A DNA stretch of 64,000 nucleotides, taken from contig SOKL01000197.1 in the NCBI GenBank assembly GCA_004376265.1, forward strand, positions 1,678 to 65,677, in the 5' to 3' direction. This document shows, piece after piece, positions 3,629 through 61,749 of the stretch (position 1 is the first letter of the stretch; every line of letters begins with the position of its first letter). The notes under the pieces are model-generated. The model did not search any database and was not told the origin of the DNA. It saw only the letters and a program-made list of their open reading frames with translations. Made by a program: the position numbers and the translations under genes. The stretch is from Candidatus Thorarchaeota archaeon (lineage in GTDB: Archaea; Asgardarchaeota; Thorarchaeia; Thorarchaeales; Thorarchaeaceae).

Positions 3629-3803
3629 TGTCGATTCCCTCTTTTTGTCAATGATTCTTTGTGTGTTGATAAAGATTACCGACTGGACATTTTGACAGTA
3701 TGCGAAAATATGGGTGTAATATCCCGGTTTTATCTGATAGTGTCACTCCGACAAAGCAATCCTTAAAACATCTGCAGTTGATAAAATCCTGAGGTGCCAT
3801 CTA

Positions 3804-5006
3804 ATGCCAGGAACTGTAGACGCCAAAGATGATTCTAATGCCGAGGATTCAGCATACTCGCAAAGCTACACTAGGCACCTAGAGCGCAGACTTCGAGCAC
3901 TCGAAACTGAGAAACAGATTCTACAAGCGGAACGTAGTCGACTTGAGAAAGAAACTCAGACTCTGAGAACTGAACTCGAAAAATTAAGACAGTCTCCATT
4001 AATCACTGCTACAATAACTGAGATGCTCGAAGATGGTCGAGCCATTGTAAAGAGCTCTACAGGACCTAATTTTGTAGTTCATGTAGCATCATCAATCCCT
4101 AGTGATAGACTACAGCCTGGTGTAATAGTAGCGCTCAATCAGAGATCTTTTGCAATCACTCAAGAACTTCCACCATCTCGAGACCCCATAATACGAGCAA
4201 TGGAAATTGAAGAAGCTCCGAGTATTTCTTACCTACAAATTGGAGGACTTCATGATCAACTGAGAGAGATTAGAGAAACTGTTGAAGATCCCCTTTTACA
4301 CCCTGAGTTGTTTGAGAAAGTTGGTATTGAACCACCAAAGGGAGTACTTCTTACGGGATTACCAGGTACTGGAAAGACTCTCTGTGCTCGAGCAGTTGCC
4401 CATGAAACAAATGCCACCTTCATTCGAGTGATTGGCTCAGAACTTGTTCAAAAATTCATAGGAGAAGGTGCACGACTTGTTCGTGAAATCTTCATGTTGG
4501 CTAAAGAGAAAGCTCCTGCAATCATCTTTATTGATGAGCTTGATGCAGTTGGGTCTCATAGGTTGGATATTGCTACTTCAGGCGATAGAGAGGTGCAACG
4601 GACACTGATGCAACTTTTGAGTGAGCTAGATGGTTTTGAAGTCCGCGGCCAAGTTGCTGTGTTGGGTGCTACAAATCGTCCAGATATTCTAGATCCAGCA
4701 TTACTTAGACCTGGAAGATTTGACAGAATTATCGAATTCCCGCTACCTGATGATGAGAGTAGAGTAGAGATATTCAAAATACACACGCGTAACATGAATA
4801 TAGAAACTTCAATTGAATATGACAAACTTCTCGCAGCTACTCAAGGTCGAACTGGTGCAGATATCAAGACCATTTGTACTGAAGCAGGTATGTTTGCGAT
4901 TCGTGACAAGAGAACTTGTGTCACCCAAAAAGACTTTAGAAAGGCAATAACCAAAGTACAGGATCGAGGTTTTGGTGATCGAGCGCCCAGTAATATGTAC
5001 TCTTAG
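3804..5006 (+). CDS. pan: proteasome-activating nucleotidase (AAA+)
   Basis: N-terminal coiled coil (LERRLRALETEKQILQAERSRLEKE), OB segment, Walker A GLPGTGKT, Walker B IIFIDELD and second region of homology. The C-terminal ...SNMYS fits a HbYX-like tail. Confidence 0.9.
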   Translation: MPGTVDAKDDSNAEDSAYSQSYTRHLERRLRALETEKQILQAERSRLEKETQTLRTELEKLRQSPLITATITEMLEDGRAIVKSSTGPNFVVHVASSIPSDRLQPGVIVALNQRSFAITQELPPSRDPIIRAMEIEEAPSISYLQIGGLHDQLREIRETVEDPLLHPELFEKVGIEPPKGVLLTGLPGTGKTLCARAVAHETNATFIRVIGSELVQKFIGEGARLVREIFMLAKEKAPAIIFIDELDAVGSHRLDIATSGDREVQRTLMQLLSELDGFEVRGQVAVLGATNRPDILDPALLRPGRFDRIIEFPLPDDESRVEIFKIHTRNMNIETSIEYDKLLAATQGRTGADIKTICTEAGMFAIRDKRTCVTQKDFRKAITKVQDRGFGDRAPSNMYS

Positions 5007-54221: not shown

Positions 54222-54779
54222 ATGAAGTTAATAATCGTGACTGGAATGCCGGGTGCAGGAAAAAGTGGATTTGCTTCAGCATTTCATAATGCTGGAATTC
54301 CGATAATTGTAATGGGTGATGTGATTCGAGAAGAAACAAAAAAACGAGGTCTTGATCCAAACCCAGAGAACACTAAGAATGTTATGCTGGAATTGAGAGA
54401 GAAAGATGGTCCTGGAGCTGTTGCATCATTCTGTGTAGACGAATTGAAGGGATTAACAACAGACGCAGTAGTTATCGATGGGTGCAAGAGCATAGCGGAA
54501 ATTGATGTCTTTGATGACTATGCTGATGAAGTTGTCATTGTCTGTGTTCACACATCCCCAAGAGAAAGATACACCCGTCTTAGAGAACGCAATCGTGATG
54601 ACGCGCCGCCGAGTTGGGAAATGTTTAGAGAGCGTGATATTCGAGAGATATCTGTAGGTGTAGGGGGCGTGATAGCACTAAGTGACATAATGGTCATCAA
54701 TAATGGCACACTCAAAGAATTCCAACATCAATCAGCGGAGCTCGTCAAGAGGATGGTCCAAGATGGATATTCTCATTAG
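54222..54779 (+). CDS. P-loop nucleotide-kinase-like protein (UPF0200 type)
   Basis: MKLIIVTGMPGAGKS P-loop, 185 aa. It is coupled to the downstream UPF0201-like gene. Confidence 0.6.
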   Translation: MKLIIVTGMPGAGKSGFASAFHNAGIPIIVMGDVIREETKKRGLDPNPENTKNVMLELREKDGPGAVASFCVDELKGLTTDAVVIDGCKSIAEIDVFDDYADEVVIVCVHTSPRERYTRLRERNRDDAPPSWEMFRERDIREISVGVGGVIALSDIMVINNGTLKEFQHQSAELVKRMVQDGYSH

Positions 54780-55185
54780 ATGTACAGTAAATCCAACGGA
54801 AGATGCTCTCAAAGTAAAGAGAGCTCTTGAAAATATCATCGGACTCCAAACATTCACTTCCGAGAATCACGGTGAGATAACAGAACTCGTTCTCACTGAT
54901 TCGAAGCAAGAATCACTGAATCTTGTGCGTCAAACGATTCACGAATTAAGAATTATCAATGCAGCTCGTAAGCGATTGTTGTCGAATTGGAACAATACAT
55001 CGACACAGATTCACTTTGACAAACAAGCCGCATTAGTTGGAAAATTAAGAATTATTGATGATAGTACCGATTTACCACCTTTAGGAACCATCGAGATTGG
55101 TCTTATTTTCGAGGAAGAATCACAATTTGAGGAATTCCTTCACTGGTTCACACCTCCAACCAAAAAAGGCCGGATTATCAATTAG
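54763..55185 (+). CDS. UPF0201-like small RNA-binding-fold protein
   Basis: Start at MDILIRCTVNPTEDALKVKRALENI, overlapping the upstream gene by 17 nt. The N-terminal V-x-P-T-E-D block is typical of this archaeal family. Confidence 0.5.
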   Translation: MDILIRCTVNPTEDALKVKRALENIIGLQTFTSENHGEITELVLTDSKQESLNLVRQTIHELRIINAARKRLLSNWNNTSTQIHFDKQAALVGKLRIIDDSTDLPPLGTIEIGLIFEEESQFEEFLHWFTPPTKKGRIIN

Positions 55186-56214: not shown

Positions 56215-56979
56215 CTACTCGTATAGATTATCGCCGCCTGAAAAGACACGTTGCATTTCTCCGTATAACACGTCTATTCCAGTCATCTCCTTGGCTGAAA
56301 CTGGCACATTGCCAGTAGCTGTATCAAGAGTTCTCAGCATCTCAAGAATTGACCTTGCATACTCTCGACGCAATCCTTCTTCAGATGCATCAAGAGCTTC
56401 TTCTAGCGTATATATCTCGGCACCCCACTCAACGATCTCTTCCAACTCGATTTCAGTCAAAATATCTGGTTTACTTAAGACGTTCAATTGCGGAAGTCCA
56501 AACCGAATGCTGATTGAAATTCCAAGAAGAGTTGATGAGAGATACCCCGTCGGGGTCCGAGCAATATTCGAGTCAAGTAGGTACAGAGATAGTGCTGGAT
56601 CATCCCCCTTGAGACTAGAAACCATCAATGGTCCAGAGTTACGGTACGCAAAGAGCTCCATCTGCCCCGGACAATCCACAAGAACATAGTCTCGTTCTGT
56701 ATCGATAATCTCATCTCGTAAATCACTGGCATGACTAATTGCCATATCTAATGACGCAACGAGAGCACCATTAGGACCCAAACCAAAAGAGCTCATCACT
56801 TCTCCATAGTTGACATACTCCCTAATATCAACATCACTTGTATACGGAGGTGAATCTACACCTGGATCAAGATTGACTACTGTTACGCTTAGATCCGATC
56901 CCACAAACCATTTTTCTAATGAAGACGTAAGTAAGGATTTACCTGATCCTGCAGTACCGACAATAAATATGAAAAACAT
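56215..56979 (-). CDS. GPN-loop GTPase
   Basis: Start at MFFIFIVGTAGSGKS. VNLDPG, the signature GPNGAL, and PGQMELF. Confidence 0.85.
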   Translation of the reverse strand: MFFIFIVGTAGSGKSLLTSSLEKWFVGSDLSVTVVNLDPGVDSPPYTSDVDIREYVNYGEVMSSFGLGPNGALVASLDMAISHASDLRDEIIDTERDYVLVDCPGQMELFAYRNSGPLMVSSLKGDDPALSLYLLDSNIARTPTGYLSSTLLGISISIRFGLPQLNVLSKPDILTEIELEEIVEWGAEIYTLEEALDASEEGLRREYARSILEMLRTLDTATGNVPVSAKEMTGIDVLYGEMQRVFSGGDNLYE

Positions 56980-57081
56980 CTGAAGTCCCAATTCGGAGTA
57001 TCAGAACTCCCTCTTTGAGTTCTTCGGTATTGCACAAATTTTCTAAACGCCTACCACAATATCAGTCGGCAGTCAACGAAT

Positions 57082-59200: not shown

Positions 59201-59286
59201 AACGGCATCTCAAATTCTGTGTGGTGATTATATAGTCACGAGATGGATTCTATTTTGAACCCAACAATCTGTCCGGGGCTGAGGAC

Positions 59287-60234
59287 TTGAGTGACGAAAT
59301 TACTGAAACCCTACAGAACATTAAAGCCATTACAGGCGTTGAAAACGTTGTTTTAATTCAAAAGGATGGGCTTCCTGTTGCAAGTGCAGGAGTATGGTTC
59401 AGTAAGGACGAAGTCTTTGCGGTGGCGTCTTCGACTTGTGCCATCTTTGGTGTTGCCAAGCTTATTCATGGGGATTTCAAGTATCTTCTAATGGAATCTG
59501 ATACTTCTAAGGTCTTCCTTGCATCCCTACCAAATGACCCTAACTATTTCCTAACGGTAACCACTGCACCGAGAGTGAACCTTGCCGCATTATTCATTGA
59601 AATGAAAGATAGTCTATCTCGACTTTCTTTCTTATTAAGGCAGCAAGGAGATGGAAGGTTTCCACCTCTTCGATCATATAGCCTTGACGAAACCAAGCAA
59701 GTTCTCCAAGGTTTTGCAGTAGCGGAAGGGCGTGATACAACTTATGGTGTATCACGTTCAATGATTTCCCTAGACCGTTCACAAGCACTGAGTCTTAGAG
59801 CACTACTTCGTCAAGTTTATGACTGTATTCCAAATATTGGATCAGTATTTTTGTCACTTAGTGGAGGTGTCCGAGTCTCGTTGGAAGGATTTACCAACGA
59901 TAGACTCGCTGCAATGTCCTTTGCACTCCACGATGCCTCAGAACGAGTGGTCCGAACGTTGAGGAATAGACCCCTTCAGACGGTCTTATGTGAAACAGAA
60001 GATACGCGCCATTTTATCTATGCAGTTCCAAATGGTGTATTTAGTCTGTGGGTGAATAGAAAAGGTCAGAAGCTTGGTCTCATGAGACTACTTCTGAAGC
60101 ACTATATCGAAGAGATAAGAAGAGTTCTAGCGTCAGCAGCCGCAGTAAAGCCTGCTGTCCCAGATGAATTGAAAGAACTGCTATTGTCCGGGAGTTCCGA
60201 TGGCGGTTTGATGCTAACGAGGAGAGAACCATGA
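59287..60234 (+). CDS. tandem Roadblock/LC7 (MglB-like) domain protein
   Basis: TTG start. The first domain is ITGVENVVLIQKDGLPVASAG...AVASSTCAIFG. The second is IGSVFLSLSGGVRVSLEGFTNDRLAAMSFALHDASER. Confidence 0.65.
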   Translation: MSDEITETLQNIKAITGVENVVLIQKDGLPVASAGVWFSKDEVFAVASSTCAIFGVAKLIHGDFKYLLMESDTSKVFLASLPNDPNYFLTVTTAPRVNLAALFIEMKDSLSRLSFLLRQQGDGRFPPLRSYSLDETKQVLQGFAVAEGRDTTYGVSRSMISLDRSQALSLRALLRQVYDCIPNIGSVFLSLSGGVRVSLEGFTNDRLAAMSFALHDASERVVRTLRNRPLQTVLCETEDTRHFIYAVPNGVFSLWVNRKGQKLGLMRLLLKHYIEEIRRVLASAAAVKPAVPDELKELLLSGSSDGGLMLTRREP

Positions 60235-61151
60235 CATATTCAATCATGCGACTGATAGAGTTAATGGGTGATCAGTTTCCAATCCTATTAAACTCAATCT
60301 TGGAACGAATGCCAGTAATTGTGGCTGGTGGGGACATTGAACTTGTAGATGACATTACTGAAAGTCTTTCTACACTAAGTCCACATCGCCACAAATTGGT
60401 ATTCTGGCGAGACTTCACCTCTGAATCTGAGATACTCTCAGTCTGGGAAGAAGAGAAACATAACTACGAGGTGAGAAGAACCGTCGTTTGTGGACTTTCG
60501 GGAAATCTCAGACTTGCAATGGATAGGATTACACACTTTGCAGGGTGGATATTAACAGTACCAATTGGATTTACGGTTCTTGGAGTTCAAGTGACTGAGA
60601 ACACACTACAAGATGTTACAGCACACATCCTCAAGAAATCAGAGAACTGCGGAATCCTAAGGGTGAGTTCACCGTCATCAATAACGTTCTCACTTGTAAG
60701 ACATTCAAACAATAGTCTCGAGGTTGAGAAGAAGATTGTAAACAAGATATTAATCCGCAAGAAGCAGTCATTGGAGAGAATAAGACGTCTCCTTACAAAA
60801 TCACTTCGAGGGCTTAATGTTTCAGATCATGTCCTGACTGCAGTTCTCAATTTGGATGATGAATCTGATAAGATTACACAGGATGTTTTCGAGGAAGAGA
60901 TTAACAATTATGTTCATGCTGCACGTAGAGCAGTAACTCTATTGTCAAGAATTCGATTGGTCCGAGAACTTGGTGCATCAACGACACTTACGGAGAGGAA
61001 CCTCTATGAAACCATTGGTTGGGATGGTGGGGATTTACCAGCCCTCATTCAATTCATCAGATCAGAGTGGCATGAAGATTTCTCTGACTGTGTTAAGAGC
61101 GGCGCTTTGTCTGGTCTTGGAGCTTGGGTAGATAGTATGTGGGGAACGTAG
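60231..61151 (+). CDS. hypothetical protein, middle gene of Roadblock-GTPase operon
   Basis: ATGA start/stop overlap with the upstream gene. 306 aa with no P-loop. PVIVAGGDIELVDD looks like a degenerate nucleotide-binding strand-loop. Confidence 0.5.
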   Translation: MTYSIMRLIELMGDQFPILLNSILERMPVIVAGGDIELVDDITESLSTLSPHRHKLVFWRDFTSESEILSVWEEEKHNYEVRRTVVCGLSGNLRLAMDRITHFAGWILTVPIGFTVLGVQVTENTLQDVTAHILKKSENCGILRVSSPSSITFSLVRHSNNSLEVEKKIVNKILIRKKQSLERIRRLLTKSLRGLNVSDHVLTAVLNLDDESDKITQDVFEEEINNYVHAARRAVTLLSRIRLVRELGASTTLTERNLYETIGWDGGDLPALIQFIRSEWHEDFSDCVKSGALSGLGAWVDSMWGT

Positions 61152-61167
61152 GAACGGAGGACAGAAC

Positions 61168-61749
61168 ATGATTATTGACTATGGAAATCGTACAGTAGGA
61201 TTGAAAATCGTCTTCTTTGGACCAGCGATGAGTGGAAAAACGACATCAATACGCTGGTTATTTTCAACACTCGACTATGCTGAAAAACTAACATCCATAG
61301 AAAATACAGTGGGACGTACAATGTTCTGTGATTTTGGTACGATTCCATTCTCTCTGAGTAACAGATGGACGATAAATGCTCATGTCTGGTCTGCTACGGG
61401 GCAAGATTTCTACAGATCTACAAGAGAAGTTGTGCTAGTTGGGGCTGATGGTGTGATTTTTGTTGCAGACTCTCAAGAACATCTCCAAGATGAGAATCTA
61501 GCAAGCTGGAATGAGCTAATGTCTATGATCGAAGGGGAGGAACGACCGCTCCCGCTTATTGTATGTCTCAATAAGCAAGATTTACCTGAGGCCTTACGGG
61601 AGGACCAACTTCGAACACATCTGAAGATTCCATCTTCAGTACCTGTGTTTATGAGTATTGCGCGAGAAGGACATAATATCGTGGAAGCATTTCAATATCT
61701 CTTTCAAAATGCAATGCGTGCGAGTGTTCTTGCTCAACCTATCTCATGA
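61168..61749 (+). CDS. small Ras-superfamily GTPase (MglA/Arf-like)
   Basis: G1 GPAMSGKT, G2 Thr in VGRTMF, G3 WSATGQ and G4 NKQD. GGAGG lies 7 nt upstream of the ATG. Confidence 0.75.
   Translation: MIIDYGNRTVGLKIVFFGPAMSGKTTSIRWLFSTLDYAEKLTSIENTVGRTMFCDFGTIPFSLSNRWTINAHVWSATGQDFYRSTREVVLVGADGVIFVADSQEHLQDENLASWNELMSMIEGEERPLPLIVCLNKQDLPEALREDQLRTHLKIPSSVPVFMSIAREGHNIVEAFQYLFQNAMRASVLAQPIS

Follow-up and report, generated by a model that had tools for sequence, protein, structure and literature searches.

We analyzed a 64,000-nucleotide (nt) stretch of a Candidatus Thorarchaeota archaeon contig (SOKL01000197.1, assembly GCA_004376265.1), called the window below, and within it three adjacent genes on the forward strand, termed here genes 1, 2 and 3. 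These genes are probably the Thorarchaeota copy of an Asgard-wide operon that would encode a self-contained small-GTPase switch, composed of an MglA-type GTPase, a Roadblock platform and a DENN-like protein as candidate guanine nucleotide exchange factor (GEF). An earlier note on this DNA had proposed a coupled operon in which a tandem Roadblock protein and an MglA-like GTPase are accompanied by a conserved third component, a candidate GEF, effector or scaffold. The analysis supports this proposal.

The module is already known as a prediction. Passages of a preprint by Liu et al. (bioRxiv 10.1101/2020.10.19.343400) describe a Roadblock, small GTPase and DENN operon as 'conserved in most Asgard archaea', call the GTPase 'Rab-like' and distinct from Rag and the Roadblock protein 'LAMTOR1-like', and propose, by analogy with folliculin, a GEF function for the module. 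Asgard DENN domains are touched on in later papers; others cover Asgard longins of the FLCN/SMCR8 type, or Roadblock and GTPase structures. Experimental work on the three-gene operon was not found in the literature searched. The study of Liu, Makarova and colleagues was published in Nature in 2021. The present analysis refines the prediction in three respects: the presumed client is of the MglA type, the Roadblock protein is fused and probably a pseudo-dimer, and a variant with DENN-DENN tandems exists.

Three coupled genes and the products of genes 1 and 3

The layout of the operon was taken from the list of open reading frames (ORFs) for the genes and from the sequence for the junctions:

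59287-60234, forward strand: gene 1, tandem Roadblock/LC7 protein of 315 amino acids, TTG start
60231-61151, forward strand: gene 2, DENN-like protein of 306 amino acids, ATG start
61168-61749, forward strand: gene 3, MglA-type small GTPase of 193 amino acids, ATG start
60231-60234, forward strand: ATGA overlap of the gene 2 start and the gene 1 stop
61152-61167, forward strand: 16-nt spacer between genes 2 and 3, GAACGGAGGACAGAAC
61156-61160, forward strand: Shine-Dalgarno-like GGAGG, 7 nt ahead of the ATG of gene 3
59227-59235, forward strand: putative TATA-like box of archaeal type, ATTATATAG, some 55 nt before gene 1 begins

The earlier note had described three tightly coupled genes on the same strand, with the ATGA overlap and the 16-nt spacer containing GGAGG, and all of these were confirmed together with their coordinates. 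The element at 59227-59235 is a possible TATA-like box of gene 1, read from the sequence only. Hundreds of homologues were found for each of the three genes. In 19 of 20 sampled Thorarchaeota relatives the position of the gene 1 start codon holds TTG, ATG or GTG; since the start position is kept in relatives, the unusual TTG start is supported. Because of the homologues, the kept start of gene 1 and the kept gene order and spacing, genes 1-3 are, as judged by sequence comparison, genuine genes and not chance ORFs.

The GTPase motifs GPAMSGKT, SATGQ and NKQD, which had already been pointed out for the last gene, were all located in gene 3, and a switch-I motif was added:

61219-61242, forward strand: G1 motif GPAMSGKT, residues 18-25
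61312-61320, forward strand: switch-I motif G-R50-T51
61390-61404, forward strand: G3 motif SATGQ, residues 75-79 (S75-Q79)
61570-61581, forward strand: G4 motif NKQD, residues 135-138

By sequence and motifs, gene 3 is an MglA-type GTPase. A phmmer search of the PDB sequences returned the MglA of Thermus thermophilus (3t12) at E 7.1e-28 and that of Myxococcus xanthus at about 3e-26. The next-best matches were an Arf GTPase (8oul, E 7e-10) and then Rab7 (E 1e-8). In the alignment R50 corresponds to MglA R53, the intrinsic arginine finger, S75 to T78, the substitute for the canonical G3 aspartate, and Q79 to Q82, the catalytic glutamine. This places S75-ATGQ opposite T-VPGQ in the MglA of T. 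thermophilus. The Pfam labels for gene 3 were Arf, Roc or Ras, and Gtr1_RagA scored 18.7 bits, below its cut-off of 22. The earlier designation 'MglA/Arf-like' could therefore be kept in its first half, which is borne out by the match at E 7e-28 and by the motifs, and was dropped in its second, for which there is the match at E 7e-10 and Arf as the best Pfam label.

The same motifs are kept in the GTPase orthologues that adjoin the DENN-like gene in Odin, Sigyn, Baldr, Asgardarchaeia and one further Asgard lineage. R50 and Q79 are invariant in the cross-class GTPase alignment, and the first position of G3 is S or T in five other Asgard lineages.

Gene 1 was searched against Pfam and modelled with AlphaFold2, using an alignment (A3) of 37 relatives from several Asgard lineages. 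The model reached a predicted local distance difference test score (pLDDT) of 84.5 and a predicted template modelling score (pTM) of 0.79, and divides the protein as follows:

59287-59643, forward strand: Roadblock domain 1, about residues 1-119
residues 120-163, forward strand: linker of low confidence
59776-60141, forward strand: Roadblock domain 2, about residues 164-285

Two stretches matched the Pfam family Robl_LC7, with E 1.4e-10 and 41.2 bits where the cut-off is 23, and the complete alpha-beta-beta-alpha-beta-beta-beta-alpha unit is present twice in the model. The pTM of 0.79 suggests that the two predicted domains have a defined arrangement. A Foldseek search of the PDB with this model gave 108 matches at E<=1e-3. 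A single domain superposes on Prometheoarchaeum and Thorarchaeota Roadblock proteins, LAMTOR2 and MglB with template modelling (TM) scores of 0.77-0.87. Both domains were aligned only by Mon1/Ccz1 chains, over about 293 columns at E 2.9e-7 and with a root mean square deviation (rmsd) of about 19 Å. When the N-terminal half was compared with the C-terminal half by BLAST, one 37-residue match at E 0.009 was obtained; profiles and structures reveal the duplication, and a pairwise alignment of the sequences does not. Pfam, AlphaFold2 and Foldseek thus agree with the initial description of gene 1 as a protein of two Roadblock/LC7 (MglB-like) domains. Several gene 1 relatives carry the Pfam family PF08923. 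We take this to be the MP1/LAMTOR3 family, and it would fit the 'LAMTOR-like' label of Liu et al.

The DENN-like protein of gene 2

The gene 2 protein itself had no match in Pfam, NCBIfam or the PDB sequences. The earlier note had seen a middle protein without a P-loop and of no recognised family. The first searches agree with this as far as the libraries are concerned, but the family is not an unrecognised one, since an operon with a DENN component was published by Liu et al.

The best matches of gene 2, with 75-93% identity, were Candidatus Thorarchaeota assemblies. Relatives with 20-34% identity were found in Baldrarchaeia, Asgardarchaeia, Sigynarchaeota, Odinarchaeum yellowstonii LCB_4, Lokiarchaeia and 'Promethearchaeota'. 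The family is small: HMMER, run exhaustively over 1.8 billion cluster representatives, found 64 of them to be members, most of about 300 amino acids. The family alignment, A1, comprises 34 sequences, and its profile was run against a 5.8-billion-protein set, where the best 120 matches were all from Thorarchaeota. Residues R26, P28 and R53 are invariant in A1, and the consensus starts with L-I-L-x-x-L-L-x-R-x-P-I-x-x-x-G ... V-D ... L-x-P-x-R. Within the Thorarchaeota loci L007-L086 the DENN-like protein is the fastest evolving of the three; in L076 and L077, identity is 52-53% for the DENN-like protein, 64-67% for the Roadblock protein and 64% for the GTPase. One family member, P0132, has 400 amino acids with the family match confined to C-terminal residues 254-399. 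A further domain may precede this match; no Pfam match was found in P0132.

The model of gene 2, built with AlphaFold2 from A1, had a pLDDT of 92.5 and a pTM of 0.88. Helices and strands alternate in residues 5-155, with six strands, and residues 164-303 are all helical. From this helix and strand pattern a DENN-like fold was expected ahead of the structural search. The following regions were assigned, the first two from the model and the third from A1:

60231-60695, forward strand: alpha/beta core, cDENN-like, about residues 1-155
60720-61139, forward strand: all-helical domain, dDENN-like, about residues 164-303
60312-60392, forward strand: best-conserved motif, with R26-x-P28, strand 1 (PVIVAGG), helix 2 and P51-H-R53

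In the Foldseek search of the PDB, four different DENN proteins were among the top 18 matches, each aligned over about 300 columns and so over both domains:

DENND1A-Rab35 (6ekk): E 0.021, probability 0.91
DENND1B-Rab35 (3tw8): E 0.024, probability 0.84
C9orf72 (7mge_C): E 0.057, probability 0.72
DENND10 (8p0v_M): E 0.08, probability 0.66

Profile comparisons point in the same direction. Of 24,736 Pfam models, Folliculin_C, the DENN part of folliculin, is the one matched by the largest number of A1 members, 3 of 34 with a best E of 4.8e-4, and DENN was matched by 1 of the 34. For the 44 relatives scanned in all, there were likewise 3 matches to Folliculin_C, the best at 20.2 bits against a cut-off of 27, and 1 to DENN, at 13.1 against 23.4. 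All four matches are sub-threshold and fall on approximately residues 5-62, in the same register as the beginning of the Folliculin_C profile. The motif segment at 60312-60392 aligns with positions 4-62 of the Folliculin_C profile, positions 90-132 of DENN and residues 234-255 of C9orf72. An hhalign comparison of A1 with the DENN region of C9orf72, taken from its PDB sequence, was weak (P 0.014) and used the same N-terminal motif. With the A1 profile, the PDB sequences yielded nothing but spurious matches to ferritin, located in a charged helical stretch, and phmmer with the gene 2 relative P0130 found nothing relevant there.

The earlier note had regarded PVIVAGGDIELVDD (residues 28-41) as a 'degenerate G1 strand-loop'. 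In the model these residues make up strand 1, a loop and helix 2; as for a G1 origin, the same segment is the one that aligns with Folliculin_C, DENN and C9orf72. Rather than a clear unrelated enzymatic fold, the model of the middle protein resembles the DENN module, a known regulator fold of small GTPases.

Several results weigh against a DENN assignment. The gene 2 protein itself matches no DENN-type Pfam model, and hhalign of A1 with human FLCN-CT was not significant (P 0.26), with the same motif aligned. None of the Foldseek matches reached E<=1e-3, global TM-scores to DENN proteins were 0.31-0.35, and the top match was an AAA+ subunit of the T4 clamp loader (E 6.8e-3). The first rank of the clamp loader also speaks for a different reading of gene 2, as a degenerate P-loop NTPase-like (AAA+ or VirB11-like) pseudo-enzyme scaffold whose DENN likeness would reflect a generic three-layer alpha/beta core with a helical lid. 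Many AAA+, CpaF and VirB11 ATPases appeared in the same E range, CpaF with probabilities of 0.85-0.90, and strand 1, its loop and the following helix lie at the position of a Walker A loop. Nevertheless, we consider a pseudo-NTPase improbable. Walker A and B motifs are absent, and it is R26, P28 and R53 that are invariant. Most AAA+ matches had probabilities of 0.1-0.4, TM-scores of 0.15-0.27 and an rmsd above 16 Å, and CpaF and VirB11 cover about 200 columns, corresponding to one domain, compared with about 300 for the DENN matches. Moreover, it was Folliculin_C that most family members matched among the Pfam models, and the published passages of Liu et al., an independent analysis, name the third protein of the operon DENN. 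Taken singly, each line of evidence for a DENN-like gene 2 is weak; the lines are mutually consistent and in keeping with what has been published.

An active P-loop NTPase was also considered for gene 2 and rejected, as the protein has no Walker motifs. No longin or uDENN domain was found in the gene 2 protein, the AlphaFold2 model of which enters the alpha/beta core at once, through helix 1 and strand 1. The overlapping gene upstream encodes the double Roadblock protein, the fold of which is related to longin.

Conservation of the arrangement and the genes around it

For the survey of loci one genome per species was used, which resulted in 80 loci (L007-L086), nearly all from Thorarchaeota. 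The order Roadblock, DENN-like, GTPase and the tight spacing are kept in every Thorarchaeota locus that reaches far enough. Overlap or near-abutment of genes 1 and 2 is kept in the Thorarchaeota loci and in Odinarchaeum. Further loci with the complete arrangement were as follows, lengths being given in amino acids for the Roadblock, DENN-like and GTPase proteins:

L087, Odinarchaeum LCB_4: 315/300/187
L088, Sigynarchaeota-type contig: 328/300/191
L002, Baldrarchaeia: 308/297/183
L004, further Asgard lineage: 334/302/192

The fragments L001, L005 and L006 have the same arrangement as far as their sequence extends. In L005 the GTPase is divided into two overlapping ORFs of 92 and 109 amino acids (1634-2241), the result of a frameshift, a pseudogene or an assembly error. 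Even in distant Asgard classes, at 20-34% identity, the middle gene thus keeps its place beside the Roadblock and GTPase genes, as the proposal of a conserved third component would have it.

Two variants were observed. In Asgardarchaeum (L090) the DENN-like and GTPase genes are kept, and the Roadblock gene upstream (3637-3999) encodes only 120 amino acids. Its product matches just the C-terminal Roadblock domain (profile positions 207-305), a single-domain variant. In a 'Promethearchaeota' locus (L003, 4052-5936) and a Lokiarchaeia-type locus (L089, 3101-4936) neither a Roadblock nor a GTPase gene adjoins the DENN-like gene. The gene upstream of the latter is a second DENN-like paralogue, matched by the family hidden Markov model at E 2e-50 and 6.5e-50, respectively. 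These DENN-DENN tandems recall the heterodimers FLCN-FNIP or C9orf72-SMCR8.

The three genes could in principle be mere neighbours, held together by local synteny in one lineage and without a joint function. In Thorarchaeota the flanks are also largely conserved, with an HD-domain gene in 64 of 65 loci and CTP synthase, located downstream, in 56 of 65, and for this reason synteny inside Thorarchaeota alone proves little. Across classes, in contrast, the flanks differ completely, and only the three-gene core persists at 20-45% protein identity. Start/stop overlaps or spacers of a few nt are kept, and all three families interact in known systems. A mere neighbourhood without joint function is therefore very unlikely. 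Because the flanks are shared only within Thorarchaeota, we regard the three genes as the conserved unit.

The neighbours in the window are ordinary archaeal housekeeping genes. They include a PRS2-type AAA ATPase, a nucleotide-kinase-like protein, an RNA-binding protein, an RMKL-like methyltransferase, a GPN-loop ATPase family protein (PF03029), a helix-turn-helix protein, an HD-domain protein and CTP synthase. The GPN-loop ATPase family gene (56215-56991, reverse strand; Pfam ATP_bind_1, E 5.5e-58) is located 2.3 kb upstream of the operon and encodes a second, unrelated P-loop NTPase. Its family is common to archaea and eukaryotes. The kinase-like ORF (54222-54779, forward strand) and the ORF with the RNA-binding domain (54703-55185, forward strand) overlap by 77 nt, and the true start of the latter is probably an internal codon further downstream.

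Outside Thorarchaeota the module was repeatedly found near genes for ribosomal protein S26e, a PadR regulator and a CDP-alcohol phosphatidyltransferase (L002:6457-8449, L005:2310-5135, L006:1375-3162 and L090:5478-5768). In Baldr-type loci an unannotated gene of 208 amino acids directly follows the GTPase gene. With CTP synthase and CDP-alcohol phosphatidyltransferase among the neighbours, a link of the module to CDP-lipid synthesis is possible, although it may be coincidence.

Regulation of the switch and relation to known systems

The data show the gene structure, two Roadblock folds, the catalytic residues of an MglA-type GTPase, a confident two-domain model of the middle protein and a gene order kept between Asgard classes. 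Based on these observations, we infer for the three proteins a physical interaction, GAP (GTPase-activating protein) and GEF roles and the type of cellular process they would serve. The MglA-type GTPase would be the switch, with its own catalytic arginine (R50) and glutamine (Q79). The two fused Roadblock domains would form the platform, most likely as the intramolecular equivalent of an MglB homodimer or a LAMTOR2/3 heterodimer, and would dock on one GTPase as GAP or scaffold. Like MglB, the platform may stimulate hydrolysis by positioning R50 and Q79 of the GTPase itself. The DENN-like protein, which has no longin of its own, could use the Roadblock platform as its 'uDENN', giving a split DENN module. 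It would promote nucleotide exchange and is the best GEF candidate. The process under control is probably related to membranes or polarity.

The direction of regulation is ambiguous, and this ambiguity also counts against a GEF, because the eukaryotic complexes of longin and DENN proteins with which the module is compared, FLCN-FNIP and C9orf72-SMCR8, are GAPs and not GEFs. The Roadblock and DENN-like proteins might together act as a GAP, as folliculin-FNIP2 does for RagC and C9orf72-SMCR8 for Arf/Rab. Alternatively, the Roadblock protein alone might be a GAP of the MglB type, with the DENN-like protein as an effector or membrane adaptor that lacks exchange activity. MglB is a Roadblock GAP that positions the arginine and glutamine of MglA, and both residues are kept in gene 3. 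The sub-threshold sequence matches of gene 2 are to Folliculin_C and C9orf72, components of GAP complexes, and not to classic Rab-GEF DENNs. In addition, a 2026 paper reports that RomRX, the proposed GEF of MglA, is in fact an effector, from which it follows that MglA-type proteins may not need a GEF. On the other hand, in FLCN, SMCR8 and NPRL2 the DENN part is joined to a longin domain that carries the catalytic arginine, and gene 2 has no longin. The best structural matches of gene 2 among DENN proteins are DENND1A and DENND1B, which are GEFs of Rab35. The data fit either activity; we view a GAP or effector role of the DENN-like protein as possible but rather unlikely, and retain it as candidate GEF.

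Of the known systems, MglA/MglB of M. xanthus and T. thermophilus (3t12, 3t1q, 6h5b, 6izw) shares with the operon a GTPase with Ser/Thr in G3, a switch-I arginine and the catalytic glutamine. MglA is the closest solved relative of gene 3, and the domains of gene 1 superpose on MglB. In contrast to MglB, which is a homodimer, the Roadblock domains are here fused in one chain, a third, DENN-like gene lies between the Roadblock and GTPase genes, and the archaeal host has no myxobacterial motility machinery.

Eukaryotic DENN modules (DENND1A/B, 6ekk and 3tw8; folliculin-FNIP2; C9orf72-SMCR8, 7mge; DENND10, 8p0v) have an alpha/beta core followed by a helical domain, as predicted for gene 2. They are its best full-length structural matches, and the motif of strand 1 and helix 2 aligns with Folliculin_C, DENN and C9orf72. 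They differ in that the gene 2 chain has no longin or uDENN, with a double Roadblock protein encoded upstream instead, and in that the presumed client is of the MglA type instead of a Rab, Arf or Rag. No similarity score reaches the customary significance thresholds.

Ragulator-Rag (LAMTOR2/3 with the C-terminal Roadblock of RagA/C) likewise combines a Roadblock platform with a small GTPase, and LAMTOR2 is among the best matches per domain of gene 1. Membership of the Rag/Ragulator system was nevertheless rejected, since gene 3 is a bare G domain of 193 amino acids without a C-terminal Roadblock domain. The tri-longin Rab GEF Mon1-Ccz1 resembles gene 1 in having several longin/Roadblock folds per chain. 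Gene 1, however, has two such domains and not three and shows no sequence similarity, and its domain arrangement differs, as the rmsd of about 19 Å indicates.

Composition and distribution of the operon match the description given by Liu et al.; the two were matched by description and not cluster by cluster to the asCOGs of their Fig. 5b. In the relevant passages of the preprint the same three components, conservation in most Asgard archaea and a GTPase other than Rag are reported, and here the arrangement was found in Thor, Odin, Baldr, Sigyn and Asgardarchaeia. Two labels in these passages differ from our assignments: their GTPase is 'Rab-like', where gene 3 is MglA-type, a discrepancy that detracts from equating the two operons, and their Roadblock protein is 'LAMTOR1-like', where gene 1 is a fused double Roadblock.

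Tentatively, the operon may represent the pre-fusion state of the eukaryotic DENN module, with a Roadblock/longin-type platform and a cDENN plus dDENN protein as separate, co-translated subunits and an MglA-type protein, not a Rab, Arf or Rag, as the original client. Fusion would then have led to DENND, FLCN/FNIP and C9orf72/SMCR8, and the tandems of L003 and L089 would be archaeal forerunners of a heterodimer of the FLCN-FNIP type. This evolutionary scenario is doubtful enough to be read as a suggestion.

DENN, longin/Roadblock and small-GTPase modules run eukaryotic membrane traffic and nutrient signalling, and their occurrence in one compact Asgard operon is relevant to how the regulators of eukaryotic GTPases arose. 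With the present details the operon becomes better defined as a subject for experiments, with a presumed MglA-type client that brings its own arginine and a small (306 amino acids), confidently predicted DENN-like protein. A simple 1:1:1 stoichiometry is plausible, as the fused Roadblock partner would be a pseudo-dimer. Three soluble proteins encoded side by side could thus show which part an archaeal DENN plays, that of GEF, GAP cofactor or effector.

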